A stretch of DNA of 58,932 nt, taken from an uncultured Clostridia bacterium (GTDB lineage Bacteria > Bacillota > Clostridia > TANB77 > CAG-508). Shown here one piece after another: positions 5,310-49,388 of the stretch; the first letter of the stretch is position 1; the number at the start of each line of letters is the position of its first letter. The notes below the pieces were generated by a model. The model was given only the letters and a program-made list of their open reading frames with translations. It was not told where the DNA came from and did no database searches. The stretch covers positions 1 through 58,932 of the forward strand of contig CALXCG010000002.1 of the NCBI GenBank assembly GCA_944386745.1, in the 5' to 3' direction. The translations under genes were made by a program, and so were the position numbers.

Positions 5310-8300
5310 TTGAAAACAACAAAAATATTAAAAATAGATGGAACGTTATTAGACAAAGAGCAACTAAATAGGCATTTGCAAAAAATAGCATCAAGTCATA
5401 ACCTAAAAAACAAAAGTGACAAACAAACATATCCTGTACCAATCATGATAGAAAATTATAAAACAATAGAACAAGTATATGAACTATTAAATGAACATTT
5501 AAAACTAGGAATAAGCATACATCCAGCAGGAGAATGGTTACTAGATAACTTCTATATCATAGAACAAACAGTAAAACAAATAGAAAAAGAATTACCACTA
5601 AAAAAATACAAAAACTTTTTAGGGATTGCAAATGGAAAATATAAAGGATTTGCAAGAATCTATGTATTAGCAGCAGAAATAGTAGCATACACAGATAACA
5701 AAATAGAAAAAGAAGGATTAGAAGAAGCATTGCAAAGTTATCAAAGTAAAAAAACACTAAGCATGGAAGAAATTTGGAATATAGGGATATTTTTGCAAAT
5801 ATCAATAATAGAAAATATAAGAGAATTGTGTGAAAGAATATACAGTTCACAAATGCAAAAATTTAAAGCAGAAAATATAGTAGAAAGATTAATTGAAAAC
5901 AAAAACAAAACTAATATAGTGTGTAAAACAAGTGCATGCAAAAAGATGGAAAAAGATAGTTTTCAAGATATGAAATACCCATTTATAGAATACATGTCAT
6001 ATATATTAAAAAGATATGGAAAAAAGGGATATAGTTATTTAAAAGTTTTAGAAGAAGCAGTAGAAATGGCTGGAACAACAGTACAAGATGTGATTAAAAA
6101 AGAACATTTTGACATAGCTGTTAGAAAAGTTAGTATGGGAAATAGTATTACAAGTATAAAGAAAATTCAAAGAATTAATTTCCTAGAAATATTTGAAAAA
6201 ATAAATGGTGTTGAAGAAATTTTAAGACAAGACCCAAGTAACACATATATAAACATGGATAATAAAACAAAGGAATATTATAGAAATGCTATAAAAGAAA
6301 TATCTAAAAAAACCAAGATTTCAGAAATATATATAGCTAGAAAAACACTAGAATTAGCACAAAAACGTTTAGAAGAAATAGAAGGAGATAATAAAGAAAA
6401 CAAAAAATCACATATAGGATATTACTTAATAGATAAAGGAATTGATGAGCTATATACAGTATTAAAATATAAAGAAAAAAATTCAATAAGTCAAAAAGGA
6501 AAAACAAAAATATATATTTCAGCAATTTATATCACAACATTAATCATAGATATAATTATTTCAGGTATTATAAATTTCAAAACTAGCAATTTATGGATAT
6601 CAATATTAACATTTATTATATTTTTTATTCCAATATCAGAAGTAGCAACACAAATAATACAATATATATTAAGTAAAATAGTAAAACCAAAACTAATACC
6701 AAAACTTGATTTAACACAAGGTTTGTCAAAAGAAATGGCAACAATGGTAGTAATTCCAACAATAGTAAAATCAAAAGAAAAAGTGCAAGAACTAATGAGA
6801 AAACTAGAAGTATATTACTTAGCAAATAAAAGTAAAAACTTGTATTTTACTTTACTTGGAGATTGTTCAGAAAGTGATAAAAGAGAAGAAGATTTTGATG
6901 AAGAAGTAATACAAGAAGGTAAAAAATTAGTAAATGAATTAAATAAAAAATACAATGAGAAAATTTTTAACTTTATATATAGAAAACGTATTTGGAATGA
7001 AGGAGAAAATTCATATCTTGGTTGGGAAAGAAAAAGAGGTATGCTTTCACAATTAAATGAATATTTGTTAGGAAATATAAAGAATCCTTTTAGAGAAAAT
7101 ACATTAGAAAATTTAGATAATATGCCAAAAATAAAATATATTATTACTTTAGATGCAGATACTGATTTAATTCTAAATTCAGCATTTGAGTTAATAGGTG
7201 CAATGTCACATATACTAAATAAACCAGTAATAAATCCAACTACAAATACAGTTACAGAAGGATATGGGATACTTCAACCAAGAGTGGGTATTGATTTAGA
7301 TATAAGTTTTAAAACATTATTTACGAAAATATTTGCAGGAGCAGGAGGAATTGACTCATATAGTAACGCAATTTCAGACACATATCAGGATAATTTTAAT
7401 GAGGGGATTTTTACTGGAAAGGGAATTTATGACTTAGAGGTATATTCAAAAGTATTAAAGGGTGAAATTCCAGAAAATACAGTTTTAAGTCATGATTTGC
7501 TTGAGGGGAGTTATTTGAGATGTGGCTTAGCTTCTGATATTTTGCTTATGGATGGATATCCTACAAAATATAATAGTTTTATGACAAGGCTTGCTAGATG
7601 GATTCGTGGAGATTGGCAGATTACAAAATGGATTGGGAATAAGAAATTAAATTTGTTATCAAAATACAAAATTTTTGATAATTTAAGAAGAAGTTTACTA
7701 GAAATTAGTATTATTGTAACAATAATATATACAAGTATTTTGGGGATTATATATAACCAAAAGATTTATGGAATTGTTACATTTGTTTTACTGATTTCTA
7801 TATTGCCATACATTTTAGAATTTTTAAATAGATTGATATTTAAGAAAGAAGGAGAAGAAAAGCAAAAGACTTTTGCTCCAAAAATCACAGGTTTTAAAGG
7901 AACTTTTTTAAGAGCGGTTATAACTTTAGCAGTTTTACCATATAAAGCATATGTGTCAACAAAATCAATTACAAAAACAATATATAGAATGTGTATAAGT
8001 AAAAAGCATCTACTAGAATGGACAACTTCAGAAGAAGCAGAAAAACAGTCAAAATCAAGTTTGGTTTCATACTTTAATCAAATGGCATTTAATGTACTTG
8101 CAGGTGTGACAACAATTGGATTAGGATTTTTGAAACAAAATGGTTTTGCGTGTGTTTTAGGACTTTTATGGATGGTTGCTCCATGTATAATGTGGTATGT
8201 AAGTAGAACAATCGAAAAACATCCTGCAATAAAAAAATTAAATCAAAAAGATAAAGAGTATGTTTTAGAAATTGGTAAAAAGACTTGGAACTTTTTTGAG

Positions 8301-11300
8301 ACTTATTTGACAAAGGAAAATAATTATCTAATATCAGATAATTATCAAGAGGATAGAAAAGAAGAAATAGTACCTAGAACATCATCTACAAATATTGGGT
8401 TATCTCTTTTAGCAGTTATATCTGCTTATGATTTAAAATATATAACTTTTGAAAAAGCAATTAATTTATTAAAAAATATACTTGATAGCGTAGAGTCACT
8501 TCCAAAGTGGAATGGTCATTTATATAACTGGTATCAAATACAGACAAAAGAACCTCTAGTTCCTAGATATATTTCGACAGTTGATAGTGGTAATTTTGTT
8601 GGATATTTGTATGTAGTTAAATCTTTTTTAGAAGAACAAATAAAAAATACAAACAATGAAAACAAAGAAGAAATGGAGGTAAGCGAAAATAAAAATCAAA
8701 TTCTAAGTGAGTTAGTAGAAAAAGTAACCAAACTAATTAATGATACAGACTTTTCATATTTGTACAGCCAAGAGGAGCAAATCTTTTCAATTGGATTTAA
8801 TATCGAAGATAATAAATTAACAAATTCATATTATGATTTACTTGCATCTGAAGCAAGACAAGCAAGTCTAGTTGCAATAGCAAAAAAAGATGTACCTGCT
8901 AAACATTGGAGTTATTTAAGTAGGACTTTGACTAAATTAGGAAAATATAAAGGGTTGATTTCATGGGCTGGTACTGCGTTTGAGTATTTGATGCCTAATA
9001 TAAATATTCCAAGTTATGAAGGAAGTTTATTAGACGAGTCTTGTAAATTCATGATTAAAAGTCAGATGGAATATAGTAAACAATTAAATGTAGCATGGGG
9101 AATTTCAGAAGCAGCTTTTAACCTAAAAGATTTAAAATCAAATTATCAATATAAGGCATTTGGAATACCATGGCTTGGATTAAAAAGAGGTCTTGCAGAT
9201 GAAATGGTTGTATCTAGTTATGGTGGTATTTTGGCAATAAATGAAGTTCCAAAAGAGGAAGTGCAGAATTTAAAAAGATTAGAACAAGAAGGAATGTATG
9301 GAAAATTTGGATTTTATGAATCAATAGATTATACACCAGAAAGAGTAGAAAGAGGGAAGATATCAAGTGTAGTAAAAACATATATGGCGCATCATCAAGG
9401 ACTAATTTTGCTATCAATTAATAATTTATTTAATAACAATATTCTGCAAAAAAGATTTATGAGAAATCCTGAAATTGATGCAGTTAGTATTTTGTTACAA
9501 GAAACAATGCCAGAGACTTTTGTAACAACAAAAGAGAAAAAGGAAAAGGTAGAAAAGCTAGAATACAAAGATTATGAAGATTATATCCAAACAACATATC
9601 AAAAAATAGAAGAAAGATTGGATATTGGAAATGTAATCTCAAATGAAGATTATATCGTTGCAATGAACCAAAAAGGTCAAGGTGTAAGTAGATATAGGGG
9701 AATTGATATAAATAGATTTAAACCTACAAAAGATTATGCACAAGGAATATTTTTTGCAGTTAAGAGTGTAAAAAGTAAAACTTTAATAAGTTCAAATTAT
9801 GGCTTTAATGATGGACAATATCAAATAAGTTTTATGCCAGATAAAGATGAACAAGAAATAAAAAATAATAATTTGAAAGTGAAAATAAATACAACTGTAA
9901 GTTCTAATGAGCCAGTAGAAATTAGAAGATTAATAATAGAAAATCAGGGAAATGAAGATGATATAGTAGAAGTTACTTCATATTTTGAACCAGTATTATC
10001 AAAGAAAGAACAAGATTATGCACATCCAGTGTTTAATAATTTGTTTTTAACTACAAAATATGATGAAAAAACAAATAGTTTAGTAACAACAAGAAAAGTA
10101 AGGGAAAAGAATCAACCTAAAATTACTGTTGCAACAACTTTATCCACAAATAGTGAAACAATTGGGGATTTTGAGTATGAATTAGAAGCGGAAAAGTTTA
10201 CAGGTAGAGGGAATTTAGAAGTTCCAAACATGATTAAAAATTCAATACCTTTTTCTAAAAAAATAGGATTAGTTACAGAACCAATTATTGCAGAGAAGAG
10301 GACAATTAAGGTAAAAGCACAGGAAAAAGTGATTGTAGATTTTATTTTATCAGTAGGAGAAGATGAAAAACAAGTATTAAATCATTTAGAAAAATATAAA
10401 TCAGCAGAAAATGTGAAAAAAGAATTTGAATTATCAAAGGCAAGAGTAGAGGCTGAAAGTAGATATTTAAGAATAAAAGGAAACGAAATTGAAATTTATC
10501 AAAAAATGCTTTCATATATAATTTTTACAAATCCGCTAAGCAGTCAAAGAAAAGAAAAAACAAACCCTCAAATAGTGTTTAAGCAAAGTGATTTATGGAA
10601 GTATGGAATATCAGGTGATTTACCAATTATTCTTGTAAAAATGAGAAATGTAAACGACAAATATGTCATAAAAGAAGTGCTAAAAGCATATGAATTTTTT
10701 AGAACGAAAAATATTGAGGTTGAGATTGTAATATTAGATGAAGAAAAACATAGTTATGAGAACTATGTAAGAGAAGAAATTGAAGGTGCAATTTTAAATT
10801 CACATATGGCATATTTGAAAAGTCAAAAAGGTGGAATTTTTATATTAACAAAGGGAGAAATTGATAAAAAAGATATTCAATTATTAGATTTTATAGCAGA
10901 TATAGTTTTAAATAGTGATAAAGGTGGATTAAAAAATAATATAAAAGATATTGAAGAAAGATTTTTAGATAGTAGAAAAGAAATTGAAGAAGAAAGTCAA
11001 CTTCCACAAGTAATAGATGAAACAGAAGATATAGATTTATTGGAAAATAGGGAAGATTTGAAATACTATAATGAATATGGTGCTTTTTCTCCAGATGGAA
11101 AAGAATATATAATAAAAGTAAACAAAGATAATAGATTGCCAACAGTTTGGAGTCATATTATAGCAAATGAAAAGTTTGGAACAGTAATAACAGAAAATAT
11201 GGGGGGATATAGTTGGTATAAAAATAGTAGACTAAATAGAGTATCAACTTGGGAAAATAATCCAAATTATGATATTCCTTCAGAAGTTATTTATGTGAAA

Positions 11301-13535
11301 GATTTAGAGAATTCTAGAAAATGGTCTTTAGGTCTAAATCCAATGCCAGATAATAAAAACTATAATGTAGTTTATGGTTTTGGTTATGCAAAGTATATTC
11401 ATAAAAGTGATGGACTAGAGCAAGAGTTAGAAGTATTTGTGCCAAATGAAGATTCTTGTAAAATTCAAGTGTTGACTTTAAAAAATACAACGCCAAATAG
11501 AAAAAAATTAAAATTGTATTATTATATGAAACCAACTATTGGTGAAGATGACTTGAAAACAGAAGGATATATAGATTTACAATTTGATAAAAATAACAAT
11601 GTGCTATATGCAAGAAACAGATATGCGGAAGAATCATCATACATGATAAATTATGTATCGAGTAGCGAGAAAATAAATTCATATACAGGTGATAAAAAAT
11701 ATTTCTTAGGAAAGGGCGGACTAGATAATCCGCAAGGATTAAATAAAGTTAGCCTAAATAGGGAAAATTCTATTGGAAAGCAGGCATGTATTGCATATGA
11801 AATAGAAGTTGAATTAGAAAGTTATAGTGCAAAAGAAATTTCATTTGTTCTAGGTTCAGATGAAAAATTAATTGATTGTAAAAATACAGCATATAAATAT
11901 CAAAAAATTGCAAATTGTAAGCAGGAATTAACAGATGTAAAAAATCAATGGAAAGAAAGATTAAATAGGTTGCAAGTTTATACGCCATTAGAATCAACAA
12001 ATATATTATTAAATGGATGGCTTGTTTATCAAACAATTACAAGTAGATTGTTAGGCAGAAGTGGATATTATCAATCTGGAGGAGCTTATGGATTTAGAGA
12101 CCAGCTTCAAGATACTTTAGCTTTAAAATATATAAATCCAGAATTCTTGAAAAATCAAATAATCAAACACAGCAAACATCAATTTATAGAAGGAGATGTA
12201 GAACATTGGTGGCATGATGAAACAGGTAGAGGTATTAGAACAAGATTTTCAGATGATTTGCTATGGTTGCCATATTTAGTGTTAGAATATATCAAATTTA
12301 CAGGTGATGAGAGTATTTTAGAAATAGAAACACCATATATTGAAGGAAAAGAACTAGAAGAAAGTCAAGATGAAAGATATGATAAATATCCAGAGAGTAA
12401 AGAAAAAGGAACAATTTATGAGCATTGTATAAAAGCTATTGAAAGAAGTTTCAATTTTGGAGAAAATGGATTGCCTAAGATTGGCTCAGGTGATTGGAAT
12501 GATGGATTTAGTACAGTTGGAAATAAAGGTAAAGGCGAAAGTGTGTGGCTTGGATTTTTCTTATATACTATTTTAGATGGATTTATTGAGATCGTGAAAG
12601 AAAAAGAACCGGTAGAAAACGATAAAGAGAAAGTAGGAAAAATTGAAAACGATGAAAATGATATTGAAGAAGGTGCTGAAAAAATTGTTGAAAATAAAAC
12701 AGAAAAATACGAGAGAATAAAGAATGAATTAAAAAGAGCATTAAATACAAATGGATGGGACGGAAGATGGTATAAAAGGGCATTTATGGATGATGGAAAT
12801 GTACTAGGAAGTATGGAAAATGAAGAATGTAGAATAGATAGCATTGCACAAAGTTGGAGTATCATTTCAAATGCAGGAGATAATGACAAAAAATATATAT
12901 CAATGGAAAGTCTAGAAAATCATTTAGTAGATAAAGAAAATGGAATAATCAAGCTATTAGATCCACCATTTGAAAAAAGCAAATTAGAGCCTGGATATAT
13001 AAAATCATACTTGCCAGGAGTTAGAGAAAATGGAGGACAATATACTCACAGTTCATGTTGGGTAATAATAGCTGAAAGTATTTTAGGCTTTGGAGATAAG
13101 GCACTAGAGTGGTATAGAATGATAAATCCAATAGAACATTCAAGAACAAAAGATGCATGTAACAAATATAAAGTAGAGCCATATGTAATTCCAGCAGATA
13201 TATATGGAGCAAACAACTTAGCTGGAAGAGGTGGCTGGACTTGGTATACAGGCTCATCAAGTTGGTATTATAAAGCTGGAATAGAATATATATTGGGATT
13301 AAAAGTTGAAAATGGGTATTTATCAATATTGCCATGTATACCTAAAAATTGGAAAGAATACCAGATGCAATATAAGTGGCAAAATAGTATTTATAAAATA
13401 ACTGTTAAAAATCCTGATGGTAAAAATATTTTTGAAAGTGGTACTAGCAAAGTTACTTTAAATGGAAATGAGGTTGAAAATCACATCAAACTAGACGGAA
13501 GTAGAAATGAATATGAGATTGAAGTGAGGATTTAG
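5310..13535 (+). CDS. Cyclic beta-1,2-glucan synthase-like giant protein (GT84 glycosyltransferase + TM region + alpha/alpha-6 domain + GH94 phosphorylase domain), TTG start
   Basis: 2741 aa. LDADT glycosyltransferase region, multiple TM helices, and C-terminal GH94 motifs GYYQSGGAYGFRDQLQD and GSGDWNDG. RBS aaggag lies before the TTG. Confidence 0.85.
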   Translation: MKTTKILKIDGTLLDKEQLNRHLQKIASSHNLKNKSDKQTYPVPIMIENYKTIEQVYELLNEHLKLGISIHPAGEWLLDNFYIIEQTVKQIEKELPLKKYKNFLGIANGKYKGFARIYVLAAEIVAYTDNKIEKEGLEEALQSYQSKKTLSMEEIWNIGIFLQISIIENIRELCERIYSSQMQKFKAENIVERLIENKNKTNIVCKTSACKKMEKDSFQDMKYPFIEYMSYILKRYGKKGYSYLKVLEEAVEMAGTTVQDVIKKEHFDIAVRKVSMGNSITSIKKIQRINFLEIFEKINGVEEILRQDPSNTYINMDNKTKEYYRNAIKEISKKTKISEIYIARKTLELAQKRLEEIEGDNKENKKSHIGYYLIDKGIDELYTVLKYKEKNSISQKGKTKIYISAIYITTLIIDIIISGIINFKTSNLWISILTFIIFFIPISEVATQIIQYILSKIVKPKLIPKLDLTQGLSKEMATMVVIPTIVKSKEKVQELMRKLEVYYLANKSKNLYFTLLGDCSESDKREEDFDEEVIQEGKKLVNELNKKYNEKIFNFIYRKRIWNEGENSYLGWERKRGMLSQLNEYLLGNIKNPFRENTLENLDNMPKIKYIITLDADTDLILNSAFELIGAMSHILNKPVINPTTNTVTEGYGILQPRVGIDLDISFKTLFTKIFAGAGGIDSYSNAISDTYQDNFNEGIFTGKGIYDLEVYSKVLKGEIPENTVLSHDLLEGSYLRCGLASDILLMDGYPTKYNSFMTRLARWIRGDWQITKWIGNKKLNLLSKYKIFDNLRRSLLEISIIVTIIYTSILGIIYNQKIYGIVTFVLLISILPYILEFLNRLIFKKEGEEKQKTFAPKITGFKGTFLRAVITLAVLPYKAYVSTKSITKTIYRMCISKKHLLEWTTSEEAEKQSKSSLVSYFNQMAFNVLAGVTTIGLGFLKQNGFACVLGLLWMVAPCIMWYVSRTIEKHPAIKKLNQKDKEYVLEIGKKTWNFFETYLTKENNYLISDNYQEDRKEEIVPRTSSTNIGLSLLAVISAYDLKYITFEKAINLLKNILDSVESLPKWNGHLYNWYQIQTKEPLVPRYISTVDSGNFVGYLYVVKSFLEEQIKNTNNENKEEMEVSENKNQILSELVEKVTKLINDTDFSYLYSQEEQIFSIGFNIEDNKLTNSYYDLLASEARQASLVAIAKKDVPAKHWSYLSRTLTKLGKYKGLISWAGTAFEYLMPNINIPSYEGSLLDESCKFMIKSQMEYSKQLNVAWGISEAAFNLKDLKSNYQYKAFGIPWLGLKRGLADEMVVSSYGGILAINEVPKEEVQNLKRLEQEGMYGKFGFYESIDYTPERVERGKISSVVKTYMAHHQGLILLSINNLFNNNILQKRFMRNPEIDAVSILLQETMPETFVTTKEKKEKVEKLEYKDYEDYIQTTYQKIEERLDIGNVISNEDYIVAMNQKGQGVSRYRGIDINRFKPTKDYAQGIFFAVKSVKSKTLISSNYGFNDGQYQISFMPDKDEQEIKNNNLKVKINTTVSSNEPVEIRRLIIENQGNEDDIVEVTSYFEPVLSKKEQDYAHPVFNNLFLTTKYDEKTNSLVTTRKVREKNQPKITVATTLSTNSETIGDFEYELEAEKFTGRGNLEVPNMIKNSIPFSKKIGLVTEPIIAEKRTIKVKAQEKVIVDFILSVGEDEKQVLNHLEKYKSAENVKKEFELSKARVEAESRYLRIKGNEIEIYQKMLSYIIFTNPLSSQRKEKTNPQIVFKQSDLWKYGISGDLPIILVKMRNVNDKYVIKEVLKAYEFFRTKNIEVEIVILDEEKHSYENYVREEIEGAILNSHMAYLKSQKGGIFILTKGEIDKKDIQLLDFIADIVLNSDKGGLKNNIKDIEERFLDSRKEIEEESQLPQVIDETEDIDLLENREDLKYYNEYGAFSPDGKEYIIKVNKDNRLPTVWSHIIANEKFGTVITENMGGYSWYKNSRLNRVSTWENNPNYDIPSEVIYVKDLENSRKWSLGLNPMPDNKNYNVVYGFGYAKYIHKSDGLEQELEVFVPNEDSCKIQVLTLKNTTPNRKKLKLYYYMKPTIGEDDLKTEGYIDLQFDKNNNVLYARNRYAEESSYMINYVSSSEKINSYTGDKKYFLGKGGLDNPQGLNKVSLNRENSIGKQACIAYEIEVELESYSAKEISFVLGSDEKLIDCKNTAYKYQKIANCKQELTDVKNQWKERLNRLQVYTPLESTNILLNGWLVYQTITSRLLGRSGYYQSGGAYGFRDQLQDTLALKYINPEFLKNQIIKHSKHQFIEGDVEHWWHDETGRGIRTRFSDDLLWLPYLVLEYIKFTGDESILEIETPYIEGKELEESQDERYDKYPESKEKGTIYEHCIKAIERSFNFGENGLPKIGSGDWNDGFSTVGNKGKGESVWLGFFLYTILDGFIEIVKEKEPVENDKEKVGKIENDENDIEEGAEKIVENKTEKYERIKNELKRALNTNGWDGRWYKRAFMDDGNVLGSMENEECRIDSIAQSWSIISNAGDNDKKYISMESLENHLVDKENGIIKLLDPPFEKSKLEPGYIKSYLPGVRENGGQYTHSSCWVIIAESILGFGDKALEWYRMINPIEHSRTKDACNKYKVEPYVIPADIYGANNLAGRGGWTWYTGSSSWYYKAGIEYILGLKVENGYLSILPCIPKNWKEYQMQYKWQNSIYKITVKNPDGKNIFESGTSKVTLNGNEVENHIKLDGSRNEYEIEVRI

Positions 13536-13589
13536 GGATTTAGGGGACGGTCCTAAAAATCCCCGCTTTTAGGGATTTTGGGACGGACC
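13534..13589 (+). repeat. GGGATTT-AGGGGACGG hairpin repeat, double unit (copy R1)
   Basis: agggatttaggggacggtcctaaaaatccccgcttttagggattttgggacggacc. It overlaps the TAG stop of the glucan synthase gene. Confidence 0.9.
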
Positions 13590-13608
13590 TTTTATCCTTT
13601 TATACTTT

Positions 13609-13792
13609 AATGATAATATTTTAATAATTTATTTCATTTCTCGGCTAACATTACATCTTGAATTCATTCTAAAATTATCATGTAGGCACCTCGAAACCGC
13701 AAGTTTGAGATTCTCCTACCTGATAATTCAAGAATGTATAACAAGATTTCATTCGCATTCGAAATTTCAAAAATTATTAAGATATTATCATT
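13609..13792. ncRNA. Rod-shaped conserved intergenic element, copy A (candidate structured ncRNA or BIME/MITE module)
   Basis: Closing stem 13609-13630/13771-13792. Conserved blocks GGCTAACATTACA (13643-13655), TAGGCACCTC..GCAAGTTTGAGATTCTCCTA (13683-13718) and ATTTCATTCGCATTCGAAA (13746-13764). The second copy is at 35829-36000. Confidence 0.5.
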
Positions 13793-13814
13793 CTATAATT
13801 AAATCATGATTAGA

Positions 13815-13870
13815 GGTCCGTCCCTTATTCCCTGTTTTTAGGGATTTTTAGGACCGTCCCCTAAATCCCT
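13815..13870 (-). repeat. GGGATTT-AGGGGACGG hairpin repeat, double unit, inverted (copy R2)
   Basis: The reverse complement matches R1. It overlaps the TAG stop of the minus-strand deacetylase gene. Confidence 0.9.
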
Positions 13871-15201: not shown

Positions 15202-15229
15202 TTTTTTCTCCGTCCCCAAATCATCTCTC
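15193..15229. terminator. Bidirectional hairpin between convergent genes, loop carries CCGTCCCC (GGGGACGG)
   Basis: gagagatgattt / aaatcatctctc stem. The stem arms overlap both stop codons. Confidence 0.55.
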
Positions 15230-18392: not shown

Positions 18393-19628
18393 ATGAGTTA
18401 TATAAATGAAAATTTTTTAAATATGCAAGATAGCTACTTATTTTCAACAATAGCAAAAAAAGTAGCAAAATACACAGAAGAAAATCCAGACAAAAAAATC
18501 ATAAAATTAGGAATAGGAGATGTTACAAAGCCAATAGTACCAGCATGTATAGAGGCAATGCATAAAGCGGTAGATGAAATTGGAACACAAGAAGGATTTA
18601 AAGGATATGGACCAGAACAAGGATATGAATTTTTAAGAAATGCAATAGTTCAAAATGATTATAAAGCAAGAGGAATAGATATCAAAGCAGATGAAATCTT
18701 TGTATCAGATGGTGCAAAATGTGATTGTGGAAATATAGTAGATATATTTGCTGAGGATAATAAAGTTGCAATTACAGATCCAGTATATCCAGTATATTTA
18801 GACACAAATGTAATGTCAGGAAGAAGTGGAAAATATAACAAAGAAAAAGACATGTATGAAAATATAGTATATTTACCAGTAACAGCTGAAAATAATTTCA
18901 AGCCAGAATTACCAAAAGAAAAGGTAGATATGATATATCTATGTTTCCCAAATAATCCAACTGGAACAGTATTAACAAAAGAAGATTTGAAAGTTTGGGT
19001 AGACTATGCTAAAGAAAATAATAGTATTATTCTATATGATGCAGCATATGAAGCATTTATAACAGAAGAAGATATACCACATAGTATCTATGAAGTAGAA
19101 GGGGCAAAAGATGTTGCAATAGAATTTAAGAGCTTTTCAAAAACAGCAGGCTTTACAGGTGTTAGATGTGCATATGTAGTAATTCCACACACAGTAAAAG
19201 GATACACAAAGGCTGGAGAAGAAATTGAATTAAATAAATTATGGAATAGAAGAACTTGTACAAAATTTAATGGAGTATCATATGTTGTACAAAGAGCTGC
19301 AGAAGCTACATATTCAGAAGAAGGTAAGAAACAAATTAGAGCTAATATTGAAAGCTACTTAGAAAATGCAAAAATAATAAAAAATGGATTAGAGGATGCA
19401 GGATTTACAACATATGGAGGTGTTAATTCACCATATATTTGGTTACAAGTACCTAAAGGCATGACTTCATGGGAGTTCTTTGATAAATTACTAGAAGAAG
19501 TAAATGTTGTTGGAACTCCAGGAAGTGGATTTGGACCACATGGTGAAGGCTATTTTAGATTAACTGCTTTTGGTACTAAAGAAAATTCAATAGAAGCAAT
19601 TGAAAGAATAAAGAATTGGAGGGATTAG
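18393..19628 (+). CDS. dapL: LL-diaminopimelate aminotransferase
   Basis: [30 protein letters not shown] and [16 protein letters not shown] at 18393 follows aaaggag. Confidence 0.85.
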
Positions 19629-19674
19629 GGGGACGGTCCTCTAAATCCCGTTTTTTAGGGATTTAGGGACGGAC
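19620..19674 (+). repeat. GGGATTT-AGGGGACGG hairpin repeat, double unit (copy R3)
   Basis: agggattagggggacggtcctctaaatcccgttttttagggatttagggacggac. It encodes the last two codons (RD) and the TAG stop of dapL. Confidence 0.9.
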
Positions 19675-19841
19675 ATAAAAATCCAAGTTTTCATTGATTA
19701 GATAACGAACTTGAAAATCACTGCTTTTAGATATTTAGGCTTACTCTTAAAACGATAAATTAAAAGATTTCGTAATAAATTACGAAGTCTTTTATAATGG
19801 AAAAAACAAGAAAATATTAAAAACAAATTTTCGCTAAAAGG

Positions 19842-34936: not shown

Positions 34937-35839
34937 ATGTTAGTTAAAGTGAAAAAGTTTATTGTAGAAAAGGAAGAAGAAAATAAAAGAATTGATAGTT
35001 ATTTATCTGAAAAAAATGAAGATTTATCAAGAGTTGCAATACAAAGATTAATTTCAGAAGAAAAGGTTAAAGTAAATGATAAAAAAGTTAAACCATCATA
35101 TAAAGTGCAAGAAAATGATGAAATTACATTGGAAGAAGAACAACCAAAGGAGATTTCATTAAAAGCACAAAATATTCCATTAGAAATAATTTATGAAGAT
35201 AATGATATCATAGTGGTAAATAAACCTAAAGGAATGGTAGTGCATCCAGCAAATGGAAATCCGGATGGTACACTTGTAAATGCTGTTATGGCTATTTGTA
35301 AAGATTCTTTATCTGGAATAGGTGGAGAAATAAGACCAGGGATAGTTCATAGACTTGATAAAGATACATCTGGAATTATAGTTGTGGCTAAAAATGATAA
35401 GGCTCATATTAATTTAAGTGAACAGATAAAAAATCATGAAGTTAAAAAAACATATATTGCAATTGTAAGAGGAGTTGTGAAAGAAAACCAAGCAACAATA
35501 AATATGCCAATTGGAAGAAGTGAGAAAGATAGAAAGAAGATGGCTGTTACCAAAAAAGGTAAAGAGGCAATAACTCATTTTAAGGTATTAAAGAGATTTG
35601 AAGATTATACAGTATTAGAGGTGAATATAGAAACAGGAAGAACACATCAAATAAGAGTGCATTTAGCTCAAATTGGATATCCAATTATAGGAGATAGTAC
35701 ATATTCAAGTGGCAAGAATAAATGGGGAATAAAAGGACAGGCTTTGCATGCCAAAAGTCTTGAATTTAGACATCCTATTACAGGTGAGAAAATGAAGTTA
35801 GAAGCGGAACTACCAGAATATATGAGACGATTAATTTAA
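34937..35839 (+). CDS. rluD: 23S rRNA pseudouridine synthase RluD family
   Basis: S4 domain, HRLDKDTSGIIVVAKN and GRTHQIRVH. The start is ambiguous (34937 ATG or 34949 GTG). Confidence 0.85.
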   Translation: MLVKVKKFIVEKEEENKRIDSYLSEKNEDLSRVAIQRLISEEKVKVNDKKVKPSYKVQENDEITLEEEQPKEISLKAQNIPLEIIYEDNDIIVVNKPKGMVVHPANGNPDGTLVNAVMAICKDSLSGIGGEIRPGIVHRLDKDTSGIIVVAKNDKAHINLSEQIKNHEVKKTYIAIVRGVVKENQATINMPIGRSEKDRKKMAVTKKGKEAITHFKVLKRFEDYTVLEVNIETGRTHQIRVHLAQIGYPIIGDSTYSSGKNKWGIKGQALHAKSLEFRHPITGEKMKLEAELPEYMRRLI

Positions 35840-36000
35840 TAATTTATATCGTTTCTTGGCTAACATTACATTATAGATAAATTCTAAACTTATAAAATAG
35901 GCACCTCTCAAAGCAAGTTTGAGATTCTCCTATTTTATAAGTAAAGAATTTTTACTATAATTTCATTCGCATTCGAAACTCATAAATTATTAAATTAATC
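35829..36000. ncRNA. Rod-shaped conserved intergenic element, copy B
   Basis: Closing stem 35829-35847/35982-36000. The same three conserved blocks as copy A (35858-35870, 35898-35932, 35960-35978). Stems have different sequence but preserved pairing. Confidence 0.5.
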
Positions 36001-36019
36001 TTTAAGGTAGCTAAAAAAT

Positions 36020-36049
36020 CAGGGATTTAAGCCCATCTTTTAATCCCTG
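36020..36049. repeat. GGGATT-stem hairpin related to the repeat family (no GGGGACGG loop)
   Basis: cagggatt / aatccctg stem, loop taagcccatctttt. Confidence 0.5.
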
Positions 36050-36072
36050 CTCTCTCGAAAGGAAGAAATTAA

Positions 36073-36801
36073 ATGGAAGAAGTAAGATTACAGAAATTTA
36101 TAGCAGATTGTGGAATTACATCAAGAAGAAAAGCTGAGGAATTAATACTTCAGGGAAAAATAAAAGTAAATGCAAAAGTTGTAACAGAGTTGGGAACAAA
36201 AATAAATCCACAAAAAGATGTTGTAATATATAATGATAGACAAATTCAAAATGATAATAAATATGTTTATATATTGTTAAATAAACCTATTGGATATGTT
36301 ACAACAGTAAAAGACCAATTTAATAGAGATTCAGTTTTAGATTTAGTCAAAGTTAAAGAAAGAATTGTTCCTGTGGGTAGATTAGATATGTATACATCAG
36401 GAGCATTAATCTTAACAAATGATGGGGATTTTGTATATCAGGTAACACATCCAAAACATGAAATAGATAAAACATATACAGTTACAATTAAGGGAAAAGT
36501 ATCTAATGAAGCGGTACAAAAATTAAGAGATGGCGTAAAAATAGAGGATAAAGAGACATATATAACCAAGCCAGCTAAAGTGAAAATATTAAAAATAGAT
36601 GAAGAAAAAAATCAATCAAGATTAGAAATAACTATTCATGAAGGGAAAAATAGACAAGTAAGGAAGATGTGTGAAGCTGTAGGACATAAAGTGTTAGCTT
36701 TGCATAGGAGTAAAATAGCAGGAATAGATGTAAAAGACTTGCCATTAGGAAAATGGAGATTTTTGAATCAAAATGAAGTAAAAAGAATTTTAAAAAAATA
36801 A
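36073..36801 (+). CDS. rluB: Pseudouridine synthase RsuA/RluB family
   Basis: S4 domain (RLQKFIADCGITSRRKAE), GRLDMYTSGALILTNDG and GKNRQVRKM. Confidence 0.85.
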   Translation: MEEVRLQKFIADCGITSRRKAEELILQGKIKVNAKVVTELGTKINPQKDVVIYNDRQIQNDNKYVYILLNKPIGYVTTVKDQFNRDSVLDLVKVKERIVPVGRLDMYTSGALILTNDGDFVYQVTHPKHEIDKTYTVTIKGKVSNEAVQKLRDGVKIEDKETYITKPAKVKILKIDEEKNQSRLEITIHEGKNRQVRKMCEAVGHKVLALHRSKIAGIDVKDLPLGKWRFLNQNEVKRILKK

Positions 36802-38653: not shown

Positions 38654-38707
38654 AGGGATTTAGGGGACGGACCTAAAATCCCTCTTTTTAGGGATTTGGG
38701 GACGGAC
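38654..38707 (+). repeat. GGGATTT-AGGGGACGG hairpin repeat, double unit (copy R4)
   Basis: agggatttaggggacggacctaaaatccctctttttagggatttggggacggac followed by ttttaatttt. Confidence 0.9.
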
Positions 38708-38868
38708 TTTTAATTTTGATTTAAGGATAAAATTTAATTTAACTTTAGAATAGACTACTGATTAAACTTGAAATTCTGAAAGTTTTGTATTATAATAGTG
38801 GACATAAATTGGTTGAAGTGTTTGAGTAAAAATCAATTTATAAATATGAATAAGTAGGAGGAGTAAAA

Positions 38869-40106: not shown

Positions 40107-40131
40107 GATAAATTTCCTTTCATATGACTAT

Positions 40132-40151
40132 GGACCGTCCCCCTAATCCCT
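40132..40151 (-). repeat. Single GGGATT-AGGGGGACGGTCC unit (copy R5) between pflB and pflA
   Basis: The reverse complement agggattagggggacggtcc is identical to the first unit of R3. Confidence 0.85.
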
Positions 40152-44963: not shown

Positions 44964-45041
44964 AGTCGAATTATAAAATTTTATTTATGAAGTGGCTAAC
45001 ATTGCAGAATAAAAAATGTCGAGAAAATAGAACGATTTTTC

Positions 45042-45069
45042 TTGACATTTTTTAGTAATAATATATAAT
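45042..45069 (+). promoter_or_regulatory. Candidate sigma-A promoter of adhE
   Basis: TTGACA, 16-nt spacer, TATAAT. The -35 is embedded in the 3' arm of a hairpin (45012-45052). Confidence 0.5.
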
Positions 45070-45104: not shown

Positions 45105-47717
45105 ATGGCAGAAGTAAGCGCACAAGAAGAACAAAAAGTTCAAAAAATGATAAATGAACTTGTAGAAAAAGCAAAAATAGCATCACAGGAGTACATGAAA
45201 TTAGACCAAGAAGCAGTAGATAAAATAACAAAAGCAATGTCAATGGCAGGGCTAGAACATCATATGGAACTTGCAAAATTAGCAGTAGAAGAAACAAAAA
45301 GAGGAATATATGAAGATAAAATAACAAAGAACATGTTTGCAACAGAATATGTATATCATAGCATTAAATATGAAAAAACAGTAGGTATAATTAGTGAAAA
45401 TGAAGAAGAAGGATATGTAGAAATAGCAGAACCAGTAGGAATAATTGCAGGAGTTACGCCTGTTACAAATCCAACTTCTACAACAATGTTTAAATCAATA
45501 ATAGCAGCAAAAACAAGAAATGTAATAATATTTGGATTTCATCCATCTGCACAAAAATCAAGTAGTGCTGCAGCAAAAATTTTAAGAGATGCAGCAATTA
45601 AAGCAGGAGCTCCAGAAAATTGTATATTATGGATTGAAGAGCCATCAATAACTGCAACAAGAATGTTAATGAATCATCCTGATGTAAACTTAATACTTGC
45701 AACAGGTGGAACAGGAATGGTTAGGTCAGCATATTCTTGTGGAAAACCAGCATTAGGAGTAGGACCTGGAAATGTACCTTGCTATATTGATAAAACAGCA
45801 AAATTAAAAACATCAGTAAATGATTTAGTAATGTCTAAAGCATTTGATAATGGAATGATATGTGCATCAGAACAAGCAGTATTAGTTGATAGAGAGATTT
45901 ACGAAGAATTTGAAAAATTAATGAGAGAAGCAGGATGCTATTTTGTAAATCCAGAAGAAAAGAAAAAATTACAAGATAGCATGTTTGATTATACAGAAGA
46001 ATATGGGTATAAATTAAAATCACATGTTCCAGGACAATCACCATATACAATTGCAAAAGAGGCAGGATTTGAGATACCAGAAGACACAAAAGTAATAGTT
46101 GTATATGAGGAAGGAATCGGAAGAGAATATCCATTTTCAAAAGAAAAATTAAGCCCAGTTTTAACATATTATATAGTTGAAAACGAAGATGAAGGAATAA
46201 AAAAATCAGAACAATTGATTGAATTTGGTGGATTAGGGCATTCAGCAGTTATTCATTCTGAAAATAGGGATACAATATTAAGATTTTCAGAAACTATGAA
46301 AGCAGGAAGAATAATTGTAAATTCTCCATCTACTCATGGAGCAATTGGTGATATATATAACACAAATATGCCATCATTAACACTTGGATGTGGTTCATTT
46401 GGTGGAAATTCAACAACGGCTAATGTATCATCAGTAAATTTAATTAATATAAAAAGAGTAGCGAAAAGGAGAGTTAATATGCAATGGTTTAAAATTCCAG
46501 AAAAAATATATTTTGAAGCAGGTTCAATTCAATACTTAGAAAAAATGCCAGATATAACAAGAGCATTTATTGTAACAGATGAAGGAATGGTAAAATTAGG
46601 ATATGTAGATAAAATTCTATATCATTTAAGAAAAAGACAACAATATGTACATTCAGAAATATTTAGTGAAGTAGAATCAGATCCATCATTTGATACAATC
46701 AAAAAAGGTGTAGAGCTAATTAAAAACTTTAATCCTGATGTAATAATTGCATTAGGAGGAGGAAGTCCAATAGATGCTGCAAAAGGCATGTGGCTATTTT
46801 ATGAACATCCTGAAGCAGATGCTGAAGGTTTAAAATTGAAATTTATGGATATTAGGAAAAGAACATATAAATTTCCTAAGTTAGGAACAAAATGTAAAAT
46901 GGTAGCAATACCAACAACATCAGGAACAGGTTCAGAAGTAACATCATTTGCGGTAATTACTGATAAAGAGAAAAATAAAAAATATCCATTAGCAGATTAT
47001 GAGCTAACACCAGATGTTGCAATAGTAGATCCAGATTTAGTAATGAGTTTGCCAAAATCAGTTACAGCAGATACAGGAATGGATGTTTTAACACATGCAA
47101 TTGAGGCATATGTATCAAATATGGCATCAGATTACACAGATGGATTAGCAGAAAAGGCAGTAGAACTTGTATTTGAAAATTTACAAGAAGCATATGAACA
47201 TGGAGATAATAAACTAGCAAGAGAAAAGATGCATAATGCAAGTACAATAGCAGGAATGGCATTTACAAATGCATTTTTAGGAATTAACCATTCATTAGCA
47301 CATAAAATAGGTGGAGAGTTCCATTTACCACATGGAAGAATAAATGCAATTTTATTACCATATGTAATAAGATACAATAGTTCAAAACCAAGTAAATTTG
47401 TATCATTTCCTAAATATGAATATTTCATAGCAAATCAAAAATATTATAGATTAGCTAAAAAGGCAGGATTAAAAGCAGATACAGTAGAAGAGGGAATCAA
47501 TAGTTTAATTGAAAAAATCATAGAAATGAACAAAAAATTAAATATTCCAAGCACATTTAAAGAAGCTGGAATAGATGAACAGGAATTTTTAGCAAAAGTA
47601 GATATGTTAGCTGATAGAGCGTTTGAAGACCAATGTACAACAGCAAATCCACGCGTGCCTCTAGTAACAGAGTTAAAACAAATATTACTAGATTCATACT
47701 ATGGAAAAAGGGATTAG
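45105..47717 (+). CDS. adhE: Bifunctional acetaldehyde-CoA / alcohol dehydrogenase
   Basis: 870 aa. N-terminal aldehyde dehydrogenase domain (CASEQ active site) and C-terminal iron-ADH domain ([10 protein letters not shown]). Confidence 0.95.
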
Positions 47718-47763
47718 GGGACGGTCCTAAAAATCCCTGCTTTTAGGGATTTAGGGACAGACC
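47709..47763 (+). repeat. GGGATTT-AGGGGACGG hairpin repeat, double unit (copy R6)
   Basis: agggattaggggacggtcctaaaaatccctgcttttagggatttagggacagacc. It encodes the final RD and the TAG stop of adhE. Confidence 0.9.
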
Positions 47764-47900
47764 TTGAAAAAATAAGGGAAAATAGATATAAAATTATAAA
47801 ATCAAGTAGTTCTGTAACTTTTTTGTGAATTGCTTGATTTTTTTTATATGTGAATATATAATTTATTGGACACAAAAATTTAGAAAGCAAGGTGAAATGT

Positions 47901-49288: not shown

Positions 49289-49327
49289 TAAGAATCATTC
49301 CTAAATTTTTAAAGTCATGAATTTGAA

Positions 49328-49383
49328 GGTCCGTCCCTAAATCCCTAAAAGCAGGGATTTTTAGGACCGTCCCCAAAATCCCT
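49328..49383 (-). repeat. GGGATTT-AGGGGACGG hairpin repeat, double unit, inverted (copy R7)
   Basis: The reverse complement matches R6. It ends 5 nt from the asnS stop codon. Confidence 0.9.
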
Positions 49384-49388
49384 CCCTG

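Follow-up and report, generated by a model that had tools for sequence, protein, structure and literature searches.

Between the genes rluD and rluB of an uncultured Clostridia bacterium lies a long imperfect palindrome that has a counterpart elsewhere on the same contig, and the paired segments of the two copies differ and stay complementary. An earlier note, made from the letters of this stretch, took these double substitutions as a sign of selection on structure and considered a 6S-like RNA. The question raised by this locus is whether the palindrome is the gene of a regulatory RNA or one member of a repeat family. Here, we describe both copies in the window (i.e. the whole stretch of 58,932 nucleotides that was analyzed) together with their relatives in other genomes. 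The rod – as the folded element is called here – is very probably a dispersed hairpin repeat and not an sRNA gene.

Two rod copies in the window

All conserved blocks that had been listed for the copy between rluD and rluB (copy B) were found in place and recur in the other copy (copy A). The 20-mer GCAAGTTTGAGATTCTCCTA and the 19-mer ATTTCATTCGCATTCGAAA both occur exactly twice in the window, as compared with 0.02 and 0.05 expected occurrences, respectively. The features are listed below in the coordinates of the window; a strand is given where the feature has one.

13534–13870: composite palindrome between two convergent genes, composed of a REP-like unit (+), rod copy A and a REP-like unit (−)
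13609–13792: rod copy A (184 bp); its outer stem AATGATAATAT / ATATTATCATT is specific to this copy
35829–36000: rod copy B, a 172-bp imperfect palindrome over its whole length, between rluD and rluB
35829–35834: outer stem GATTAA, specific to copy B, pairing with TTAATC at 35995–36000
35835–35839: TTTAA, found again at 36001–36005; end points of the 166-bp difference between rod-present and rod-absent alleles
35835–35847: left terminal inverted repeat TTTAATAATTTAT, pairing with 35982–35994 and containing the rluD stop codon TAA (35837–35839)
35856–35870: 5' side of the central bubble, conserved loop TTGGCTAACATTACA; nearly invariant columns 41–58 of alignment A3
35898–35932: apical module, TAGG / 4 × 4 internal loop CACC-TTCT / 7-bp hairpin TCTCAAA-GCAAG-TTTGAGA / CCTA
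35960–35978: 3' side of the central bubble, conserved loop ATTTCATTCGCATTCGAAA, continuing into a 5-bp helix
35982–35994: right terminal inverted repeat ATAAATTATTAAA
36020–36049, + strand: partial GGGATT REP-like, terminator-like hairpin unit, found also in the alleles L003 and L005, which lack the rod
44994–45013, + strand: relic 5' fragment of a third rod (GGCTAACATTGCAGAATAAA; compare L057, CTCGGCTAACATTGCAGAATAAATAAATTC), under the nhmmer threshold
45016–45050: GTCGAGAAAA...TTTTCTTGAC hairpin after the relic of the third rod

Each of the two copies forms a single long rod when folded. The minimum free energy (MFE) is −54.2 kcal/mol for the + strand of copy B (z = −9.6) and −51.9 kcal/mol for copy A (z = −9.5), and in both cases none of 200 shuffled sequences was as stable; for the − strand of copy B −62.9 kcal/mol and a z of about −9.6 were obtained. 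The closing stem of copy B (35829–35847 with 35982–36000) does include the rluD stop codon, and the examples of exchanged stem segments given in the earlier note (atttc/gaaat in A versus gtttc/gaaac in B and the rest) are correct. On the structure of copy B, 42 of the 62 base pairs are identical in A and B, one side is changed in seven and both sides are changed in 13, with 12 of these 13 being Watson–Crick pairs in both copies. Among the unpaired columns 7 of 55 differ. The terminal inverted repeat is conserved within a subfamily, being common to copy A and the copies L089, L062 and L035 in the form YTTAATAATTTAT / ATAAATTATTAAR.

The rod family, its stems and its strands

Copies were collected by a search with the apical 18-mer, the apparent invariance of which is therefore partly an artefact of this use; orthologues are frequent among the copies, so that counts are not independent. 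At least 117 DNA stretches were retrieved and about 100 of them are AT-rich rods in MAGs, which are assigned to Clostridia, Clostridium, Bacillota or Eubacteriales and come from the guts of rabbit, human, chicken and others. In addition to A and B, the family counts at least about 100 members, which are spread over two dozen or more species-level MAGs of uncultured Clostridia. Copy numbers per genome reach at least nine, at unrelated loci (BRZ_PC bin92). Paralogues within one MAG show a median identity of 0.88–0.97, and in their inner part identity reaches 99–100%. The rods have a median length of 189 bp (family range 170–190 bp) and form an inverted repeat from end to end. The longest ORF starting with ATG has a median of 20 amino acids and no conserved ORF was found among the copies examined. 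The most conserved part of the family is the apical module; related rods retain GGCACC...TTYTCC and have a different tip.

Comparison of the whole window with Rfam at the gathering score gave no match for the rod, and at E ≤ 10 the region 35700–36150 yielded on both strands no 6S RNA and only microRNA-like matches due to chance. A BLAST search with copy B in distant mode against 72,556 plasmids and 50,697 phages revealed no similarity. The sole match of the 18-mer in viral contigs is a chance hit because it lies inside a GC-rich coding region, and a literature search with the rod sequences themselves returned no relevant paper. The rod family of uncultured low-GC gut Clostridia is large and previously undescribed.

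Covariation was analyzed in 89 aligned copies (B and 88 others) for the 62 base pairs of the structure of copy B. Double-sided changes are found in 50 of these pairs. The proportion of paired cells is 87.9% as compared with 37–50% with slid partners, and the covariation score is 0.306 as compared with at most 0.107, the observed score being reached in none of 500 shuffles. Along those edges of the minimum spanning tree that span less than 5% divergence, 69 single changes lead to a mismatch and 11 doubles are compensated, and the ratio of the two nears 1:1 at high divergence. Single mismatches thus appear first and compensated doubles follow with divergence, which is the pattern expected of selection on the stem. 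The suggestion that double substitutions reflect selection on structure is borne out by both results, and the alignment of A, B and homologues that had been proposed as a check shows variation that is compensatory and not random. The stems are held complementary by selection, and the three internal loops and the apical hairpin are conserved in sequence. One covarying pair is situated inside the central bubble (column 53 with column 158; A-T in 66 copies, G-C in 22).

The strands of the rod differ in the way they pair. Opposed bases that are not Watson–Crick partners are of the types C·T, A·C and A·A when the rluD-sense strand is read, which makes them G·A, G·U and U·U when read from the complementary strand. 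Arm-versus-arm alignments contain 660 C·T, 311 A·C, 215 A·A, 125 T·T, 88 A·G and 76 G·T oppositions, and A·C exceeds G·T in 85 of the 89 copies. Within helices the contrast is 111 cells of A·C (56 cluster-level events) versus 11 cells of G·T (10 events). Unpaired columns hold 1113 C and 397 G, and the window is G-rich on the same strand. The MFE of the complementary strand is the more stable one in 89/89 copies, a difference that is partly a composition effect because the z-scores of the strands are equal, so that the strand argument rests on the mismatch types. It indicates that the complementary strand is the better-pairing one; the rluD-sense strand had implicitly been folded in the earlier note. 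At 65 of 81 loci (about 80%, p = 4e-8) it is the same strand of the element that coincides with the locally G-rich strand, GC skew being confounded with gene orientation. The better-pairing strand is mostly found on the leading-strand template, which is the reverse of the IS608 rule if it is the active strand. The two strands of the rod are not equivalent, and one orientation of the element is preferred with respect to local strand composition.

Genomic setting and losses of the rod

Rods lie at gene 3' ends. In 62 versus 19 cases they have the same direction as the gene upstream, and convergent gene pairs are enriched and divergent ones depleted. Inverted REP-like hairpins of the GGGATT/GGGGACG type frequently flank the rods, and many copies in BRZ MAGs show a REP–rod–REP layout of 410–470 bp; inverted REP-like units are not part of copy B. 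The GGGATT hairpin that had been described at 36020–36049 is real and its family is present at nine loci in the window, each immediately past a stop codon. From the hairpin an association of the rod with this repeat family had been concluded. What remains of it is the common location at gene 3' ends; a specific pairing of rod and hairpin is not seen, because the hairpin family is common and the hairpin at 36020 is kept in rod-less alleles.

The outer stems, like the inverted repeats that form the flanks, differ from copy to copy, and the flanks have no motif in common. No target duplication was detected at the inverted-repeat ends of 88 copies, where the score for 5-nt direct repeats was 1.90 as compared with 1.85 for shuffled pairs. 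A promoter-like site occurs at a conserved position of the sense strand in 53 of 89 copies, which is not above chance for AT-rich DNA. For the better-pairing strand no positionally conserved promoter was found in the 89 copies, and no intrinsic terminator is predicted at B.

The presence of rod B varies among contigs that encode identical RluB. In the aligned alleles of the B locus the rod is present in the window and in L001, L004 and L006, and it is missing in L003 and L005. Three independent losses between direct repeats (TTTAA, TTCATTC and AAATCCC) were recognized. The overlap of TTTAA with the conserved terminal repeat makes a deletion end point a better interpretation than a target duplication. 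Furthermore, the sequence TTAATT in or next to the outer stem is ancestral rluD coding sequence (Leu-Ile codons) and rod-less alleles retain ATTAATT. The C-termini of RluD relatives read ...LIN(G/R)D, which fits the reconstructed palindrome before insertion: the joined flanks of B would give GATTAATTAATC, reading ...RRLINL*. The position of TTTAA within the conserved terminal repeat and the LIN C-termini of RluD relatives were the reasons to abandon another reading of the B locus, i.e. a fresh insertion with TTTAA duplication and a right end complementary to the target.

Copy A is present in all 11 contigs with an identical neighbouring deacetylase, and no empty site for it was found within the species in these contigs; the relatives represent deletions and not virgin sites. 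In L134 and L135 the composite is reduced to a single REP. No insertion event was caught directly and every presence/absence difference that was seen can be read as a deletion. The rod is lost by deletion between short direct repeats.

Nature of the rod and alternative explanations

The best explanation overall – and probably the right one – is a non-autonomous MITE/REPIN-like repeat that has multiplied within genomes and works as a single-stranded hairpin. REPINs are doublets of REP sequences that fold into hairpins and depend on RAYT Y1 transposases for their mobility; their hairpins carry compensatory changes and their excision products are asymmetric (Bertels & Rainey 2011, PMC3116915). 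Like them, the rod is short, non-coding, multi-copy and intergenic and persists vertically in its lineage. It also forms one single-stranded hairpin in which the stem sequence is free as long as it pairs, shows no classical target duplication and leaves asymmetric loss products with part of one arm, as at the B locus. However, REPINs conserve their two REP ends and the middle is free, whereas the rod conserves its apex and internal loops and the ends vary. Moreover, rods are two to three times longer, and the GGGATT/GGGGACG REP-like units are separate from them and often flanking.

Structured MITEs (bcr1 of the Bacillus cereus group, ERIC/RU-1, Correia/nemis, RUP) are long stem-loops with compensatory changes (PMC3184786). 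The rod shares with MITEs the small size of 100–200 bp, the non-coding sequence without transposase, the terminal inverted repeats and the numerous copies dispersed between genes with strain-variable distribution. In contrast with rods, which have none across 88 copies, classical MITEs carry target-site duplications (5 bp in bcr1), and their conserved termini match the parent IS whereas the termini of the rod are its least conserved part. Elements of the IS200/IS605/PATE type resemble the rod in the lack of target duplication; their strand-specific recognition of imperfect hairpins with unpaired bases in ssDNA and their replication-related orientation bias may be further parallels. These elements, however, have one small subterminal hairpin at each end, and their insertion point lies 3' of a tetra- or pentanucleotide that is fixed; the rod is a single continuous 180-nt hairpin without a fixed flanking motif. 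Also in contrast with IS200/IS605, its better-pairing strand is mostly the leading-strand and not the lagging-strand template.

On these grounds the following course of events can be proposed. The rod would function and propagate as a single-stranded hairpin, more likely as ssDNA and possibly as RNA. Its helices would need only to pair, and the conserved unpaired loops would be recognition sites for a trans-acting protein, most plausibly a strand-specific hairpin enzyme of the HUH/Y1 (IS200/IS605–RAYT) type or another recombinase. That an ssDNA-based and hairpin-recognizing mechanism is at work is a tentative part of the explanation and falls somewhat short of being probable. Integration would occur without target duplication and by preference at the dyad of existing palindromes or hairpins at gene ends, which would account for the extra outer stems of individual copies and for rods between inverted REP-like hairpins. 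In the case of copy B, the target of insertion was probably the palindrome GATTAA|TTAATC, located at the rluD end. The rod now provides the rluD stop codon, and in some strains it would later have been deleted between the two TTTAA repeats. Insertion at a palindrome centre is what we infer from this one reconstructed site. Among 20 small ORFs of the window that were scanned neither a Y1/HUH transposase nor a RAYT gene was found, the only transposase-like match being a YhgA/Rpn-like PD-(D/E)XK protein (3868–4560). In an unsystematic look through about 0.8 Mb of loci no parent IS with the same terminal repeats was noticed. A stem segment of 6–8 bp that is hypervariable yet complementary in otherwise 97%-identical paralogues is left unaccounted for by the MITE/REPIN-like repeat. 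An IS110 bridge-RNA was also considered and set aside, the loops being constant while ends and targets vary.

The best surviving alternative, which we consider doubtful, is a cis-acting structured RNA module on a mobile repeat, transcribed with or antisense to the neighbouring mRNAs. It could serve as a 3'-end stabiliser, RNase III substrate, terminator or insulator, or protein or ribosome decoy, and selection would act on the RNA structure. The strong covariation would be compatible with this, as would the G·A, G·U and U·U oppositions of the complement, which are the usual repertoire of RNA internal loops. The location at gene 3' ends points in the same direction, with read-through from the upstream gene possible in 76% of copies, and bcr1 and ERIC MITEs are transcribed and show compensatory changes (PMC3184786). 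In addition, the loops of the sense strand contain CACCUC and UUCUCC, which on reading the sequence resemble anti-Shine–Dalgarno motifs. But it is the mostly co-transcribed sense strand that bears the destabilising A·C and C·U mismatches, no positionally conserved promoter was found for the better-pairing strand, no intrinsic terminator is predicted at B, and Rfam contains no match.

Somewhat less likely still, the rods may represent a new class of hairpin-borne mobile element or, alternatively, a functional RNA of the antisense strand that has spread as a repeat. In the former case an enzyme would recognize a single-stranded rod of about 180 nt via its conserved internal loops, and the rod would insert without duplicating its target at the dyads of other palindromes, such as hairpin tips at gene ends and REP doublets; the hypervariable complementary 6–8 bp would be explained by a short part of the stem that can be re-written. 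In the latter, the better-pairing strand might be e.g. a decoy for a protein or RNA polymerase.

It is improbable that the palindrome is kept perfect by mutation alone, i.e. by intrastrand template switching or hairpin mismatch repair without selection on folding. One arm would then be copied onto the other and 'compensatory' changes would arise automatically. The rarity of G·T wobbles on the strand as read is in line with such copying. So are the perfect, copy-specific outer stems, which look as if the palindrome had been extended outward from the rod, and the 11 compensated doubles already present among neighbours less than 5% diverged. These same nearest relatives, however, show 69 uncompensated singles, and doubles accrue only with divergence. 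Conserved loops that are asymmetric would furthermore not survive a copying of arms, nor would such copying lead to mismatch types that are biased fivefold to tenfold between the strands.

It is very unlikely that A and B are paralogous genes of a trans-acting 6S-like RNA, the bubble of which would trap RNA polymerase by imitating an open promoter. With about 180 nt, long helices around a bubble of about 14 by 15 nt and a conserved bubble sequence, the rod has a shape that would be compatible with binding of the RNA polymerase holoenzyme. 6S RNA, in contrast, is a single or double housekeeping gene with an Rfam profile, and the rod has no match even at E ≤ 10 and no conserved promoter. At least about 100 copies exist in many genomes, with at least nine at unrelated loci of one MAG, and copy B is dispensable within the species, being absent in strains with identical RluB; copies decay by deletion. 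The idea of a 6S-like or otherwise dedicated sRNA gene does not stand up to these observations.

Just as unlikely is an sso-like single-strand origin or ssDNA priming site (for RNA polymerase or primase), left over from rolling-circle plasmids or integrative elements. The ssoA origins of Firmicutes are strand-specific imperfect hairpins of similar size (PMC8860593), and TTAGCCGAGAAA in the complement of copy A is similar to the RSB motif TTATGCCGAGAAAATTT (PMC4598088), but the motif is degenerate in other copies (GCCAAG, GCCGAA, GCCATT), plasmids and phages show no BLAST similarity and the viral match is due to chance. The lead given by the RSB-like GCCGAGAAA was rejected on comparison with the ssoA of pC194, pE194 and pT181. 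In these origins the 5' arm carries the RSB and the terminal loop CS-6 (TAGCG), and the rod has the RSB-like 9-mer only in the 3' arm of its complementary strand, i.e. in the wrong arm, and no CS-6 (TAGCGT/A).

An intergenic rod whose stems clearly covary may be taken for a new regulatory RNA, and here the covariation, although real, belongs to a proliferating repeat. Pipelines for the discovery of sRNAs and riboswitches would otherwise report about 100 false 'genes' in these MAGs. With at least about 100 copies from organisms without a cultured representative, the family is a large natural data set that combines conserved loops, covarying stems, strand asymmetry and orientation bias. It makes testable which enzyme recognizes the loops of such a 180-nt hairpin, and in which of the two strands. 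For the host the rod is of consequence as well: in this strain it supplies the stop codon of rluD, and long palindromes of such kind are hotspots of deletion.

The rod family and its extent

The rod, a palindromic repeat of about 180 bp, is a large repeat family and not a pair of genes. Within the window its long conserved blocks occur exactly twice, against 0.02–0.05 occurrences expected by chance, and both copies fold as a single long hairpin (MFE −51.9 kcal/mol, z = −9.5 for copy A; −54.2 kcal/mol, z = −9.6 for copy B); 0 of 200 shuffled sequences folded as well as either. The sequence of 35829-36049 is as the earlier note had read it, including the conserved blocks present in both copies, the closing stem of B with the stop codon of rluD in it, and the GGGATT hairpin at 36020-36049.

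13609-13792, copy A
35829-36000, copy B, between rluD and rluB
44994-45050, relic of a third rod, its 5' fragment (GGCTAACATTGCAGAATAAA) joined to a GTCGAGAAAA...TTTTCTTGAC hairpin

The latter hairpin is similar to a REP-like family seen in the Lapin MAGs (a set from gut samples, as is BRZ). Further copies were gathered with the apical 18-mer GCAAGTTTGAGATTCTCC in a scan of a species-representative genome collection. At least 117 stretches matched, and about 100 of the matches listed are AT-rich rods of identical architecture. Their MAGs all come from guts of animals and humans and bear the labels uncultured Clostridia, Clostridium, Bacillota or Eubacteriales; the other matches are chance ones in GC-rich genomes. 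Single MAGs contain many copies at unrelated loci (for instance nine aligned in BRZ_PC bin92, eight in Lapin-033 bin49), with a median pairwise identity of 0.88–0.97 and, in the inner part, identities of up to 99–100%. Searching the fetched loci (L numbers) with nhmmer added a few copies and also revealed related rods in which the tip differs but the loops retain their motifs (CGGCTCAATACA, TTTCAATCACATTCG and GGCACC...TTTTCC). Three of them share the apical module GGCACCC TTTCAC ... GCGAAC ATTTTCC:

L106:4845-5035, related rod family
L059:7330-7530, related rod family, with an additional hairpin inserted in the tip
L046:2650-2800, related rod family

Nothing similar to the rod was found in Rfam, among PLSDB plasmids and GenBank phages or in the searchable literature, and the sole match in IMG/VR was due to chance.

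Pairing and strand asymmetry

On the structure of B, 42 of 62 base pairs are common to both copies, 13 are changed on both sides and seven on one side, and seven of 55 unpaired columns are changed. Twelve of the 13 double changes are Watson–Crick in A and B; the stems differ yet stay complementary, as the earlier note describes. That such changes reflect selection on structure had been proposed from these two copies; it is confirmed and much strengthened by an alignment of 89 distinct copies, A and B with their homologues, on which the full structure of B was scored. Pairing is kept well above slid and shuffled controls: 87.9% of cells are paired compared with 37–50% after a shift of the 3' partners by 1–3 columns, the covariation score is 0.306 against at most 0.107 in the slid controls, and 0 of 500 shuffles reached any observed pairing measure. 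Double-sided changes are found in 50 of the 62 pairs. RNAalifold recovered the inner helices with several pair types per position, and a pair inside the central bubble covaries as well (A-T in 66 copies, G-C in 22, one exception). Loops are conserved and, as the earlier note had it, paired columns vary more than loops in the long run.

Changes were also counted on a minimum spanning tree that joins the copies. Where its edges span less than 5% divergence, 69 single changes break a pair and 11 doubles are compensated; at high divergence the ratio nears 1:1. This order, singles first and doubles with divergence, is the hallmark of selected compensatory evolution, and it argues against automatic copying from arm to arm.

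The rod is strand-asymmetric and the earlier note probably folded the weaker strand. Oppositions were counted on the sense strand (that of rluD) and, independently, by aligning one arm to the other.

Mismatched oppositions in the rod copies
Opposition; non-Watson–Crick cells in well-aligned helices, sense strand; arm-versus-arm count, loops included
A·C; 111 (56 cluster-level events); 311
G·T; 11 (10 events); 76
A·A; 79; 215
T·T; 28; 125
C·T; 46; 660
A·G; 10; 88

In the arm-versus-arm count 85 of the 89 copies have more A·C than G·T. Read on the complement, C·T, A·C and A·A of the sense strand turn into G·A, G·U and U·U, which in nearest-neighbour thermodynamics are the most stable mismatches of both RNA and DNA. 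Unpaired columns of the sense strand are strongly C-rich (C 1113, G 397); the window overall is G-rich on this strand (skew +0.21). The complement has the lower MFE in all 89 copies with a z-score no better than that of the sense strand, and therefore we take the mismatch types and not the MFE as strand evidence. Deamination bias on an exposed strand would predict the reverse asymmetry. Either the complement is the folded functional strand or the sense strand is selected for G-free open loops. The loops of the apical module (window 35900-35928, with the same module in all copies) read CACCUC and UUCUCC on the sense strand, which is anti-Shine–Dalgarno-like; on the complement they are Shine–Dalgarno-like (GGAGAA and GAGAGGUG), and 10 nt past GGAGAA follows a two-codon ORF with its stop (UUG CUU UGA).

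Genomic position, ends and loss

Rod copies are intergenic. Taken in element sense orientation, 62 copies have a co-directional upstream gene and 19 an opposed one, and the flanking genes are tandem co-directional (31), convergent (28), tandem opposed (13) or divergent (6), which places rods at gene 3' ends with promoter regions avoided. Rods also have a preferred orientation: 65 of 81 loci have the same element strand on whichever strand is locally G-rich, as do 61 of the 73 loci with |skew| > 0.08 (p ~4e-8, with orthologues that are not independent). This orientation bias could stem from the mobilisation mechanism; it could equally stem from survivorship, if the stronger hairpin is deleted faster on the lagging-strand template.

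Many rods are located between two inverted REP-like hairpin units (GGGATT/GGGGACGG in the lineage of the window, GTGTCAAAAG...CTTTTGACAC in others), giving composite palindromes of 410–470 bp. The proposed tie between rod and GGGATT repeats is thus real, but largely a common preference for gene ends: the unit (about 55 nt, AGGGATTTAGGGGACGGTCCTAAAAATCCCTGCTTTTAGGGATTTAGGGACGGACC) is abundant by itself, and its nine window loci are all gene-oriented and directly 3' of stop codons.

13534-13870, REP-rod-REP composite of copy A
13534-13590, REP-like unit
13815-13870, REP-like unit
15205-15225, REP-like unit
19620-19680, REP-like unit
36020-36049, REP-like unit
38654-38715, REP-like unit
40130-40150, REP-like unit
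47709-47765, REP-like unit
49325-49385, REP-like unit
5310-13535 (+), 2741-aa ORF with GH94, glycoamylase and GH94 beta-supersandwich domains, ending immediately 5' of the composite

This ORF resembles a cyclic beta-1,2-glucan synthase or phosphorylase. The units look terminator-like (hairpin, then T-run), and one of them, in the common L002/P0002 allele, contains the final codons of rluD together with its stop (AAC AGG GAT TAG).

Beyond the subfamily-conserved ends each copy has its own additional complementary stem:

Copy B, GATTAA / TTAATC
Copy A, AATGATAATAT / ATATTATCATT
L089, AACAATTAA / TTAATTGTT
L015, CATAATAC / GTATTATG
L087, GGTCAGGAGAT / ATCTCCTGACC

There is no target duplication: in 88 copies no direct repeat was found at the inverted-repeat boundary (score 1.90, control 1.85). 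If rods insert at the dyad of palindromes already in place, this would account for the copy-specific outer stems and also for rods between inverted REPs; the reconstruction of B is the one direct support for such insertion. In two Lapin MAGs, the inner rod of paralogues is 97% identical, yet a stem segment of 6–8 bp differs at nearly all positions, its arms being always complementary and bracketed by conserved TTCAATT...AATTGAA.

L007, L024, L026, L032, L048, L081, L039, L094, paralogues with the hypervariable segment, about 80–90 nt to each side of the apical 18-mer
L011, L052, L099, L110, L055, L091, second subfamily of like three-layer layout, TTAAGC outside
L022:4738-4930, rod interrupted by an unrelated element (about 190 bp) with 9 bp directly duplicated, AGAACAAAT

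The duplication in L022 indicates that a classical MITE or IS fragment used the rod as target.

Among contigs with an RluB identical to that of the window the rod is present in L001, L004 and L006 and absent in L002, L003 and L005. Between the filled allele and that of L003 and L005 the difference is exactly 166 bp, with TTTAA at both bounds. Fresh insertion with a 5-bp duplication was set aside on four observations, from which we infer loss by deletion. The left TTTAA is part of a terminal repeat (YTTAATAATTTAT) common to sister copies; a sister species (L098) carries the rod at this site too, with identical junctions; joining the copy-specific flanks of B gives a perfect palindrome (GATTAA|TTAATC) and the RluD end ...RRLINL*, restoring the LIN of close relatives (...K(K/E)LIN(G/R)D*), and RluD of L003 ends ...RQLI* as in the filled allele; and the copy-A locus offers two more, unambiguous losses of like form:

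L137:2010-2250 and L138:2010-2250, copy-A orthologues, apical half of the rod gone between TTCATTC repeats
L134:2007-2035 and L135:2007-2035, whole REP-rod-REP composite collapsed to one REP, AAATCCC repeats

These are two independent deletions between short direct repeats. Long hairpins favour slippage between such repeats. At the copy-A site a plain terminator hairpin is found in more distant relatives, and copy A is fixed in 11 of 11 contigs with the identical neighbouring deacetylase. In L137 a PDDEXK_2 gene adjoins this locus.

Mechanism and meaning

The rod is best read as a non-autonomous hairpin repeat that is strand-specific and acts single-stranded. It would propagate, or once have propagated, via a single-stranded form, more likely DNA than RNA, in which pairing would be the sole demand on the helices; a trans-acting protein would bind the conserved loops and the apical module, and insertion would occur at palindrome centres. 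Mechanistically it comes closest to REPINs with RAYT and to IS200/IS605 elements (PMC3116915), and its enzyme may be of that type. Among the 20 small window ORFs scanned there is no Y1 transposase, and no mobilising gene was identified. Judged by its domain, one ORF is a possible candidate for a repeat-associated nuclease:

3868-4560 (+), 230-aa ORF matching PF04754 Transposase_31 (E = 2.8e-19; YhgA/Rpn-like PD-(D/E)XK nuclease)

The main rival, a role of the rod at the RNA level, we consider less likely. A canonical REPIN is ruled out by the reversed conservation pattern, and a classical MITE since target duplication is lacking and the conserved part is the centre rather than the ends. The complement of copy A contains TTAGCCGAGAAA, close to the RSB motif of ssoA single-strand origins, TTATGCCGAGAAAATTT (PMC4598088). 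In the origins compared here (pC194, pE194, pT181) the 5' arm contains RSB and the loop CS-6, whereas the rod has its RSB-like motif in the 3' arm, no CS-6 and a degenerate motif in other copies, which excludes an ssoA origin. The label of a 6S-like small RNA falls with the lack of a model match, the many copies and their dispensability. Nor is the rod coding, its longest ORF having a median of 20 aa. No convincing promoter or terminator was found in the rod.

The rod is a new family within a known kind of hairpin-forming bacterial repeats, unusual in its layout with conserved centre and free ends. Ordinary in kind, it is yet an unusually clean natural data set, and its strand asymmetry, hypervariable stem segment and proposed location at palindrome centres are worth study.
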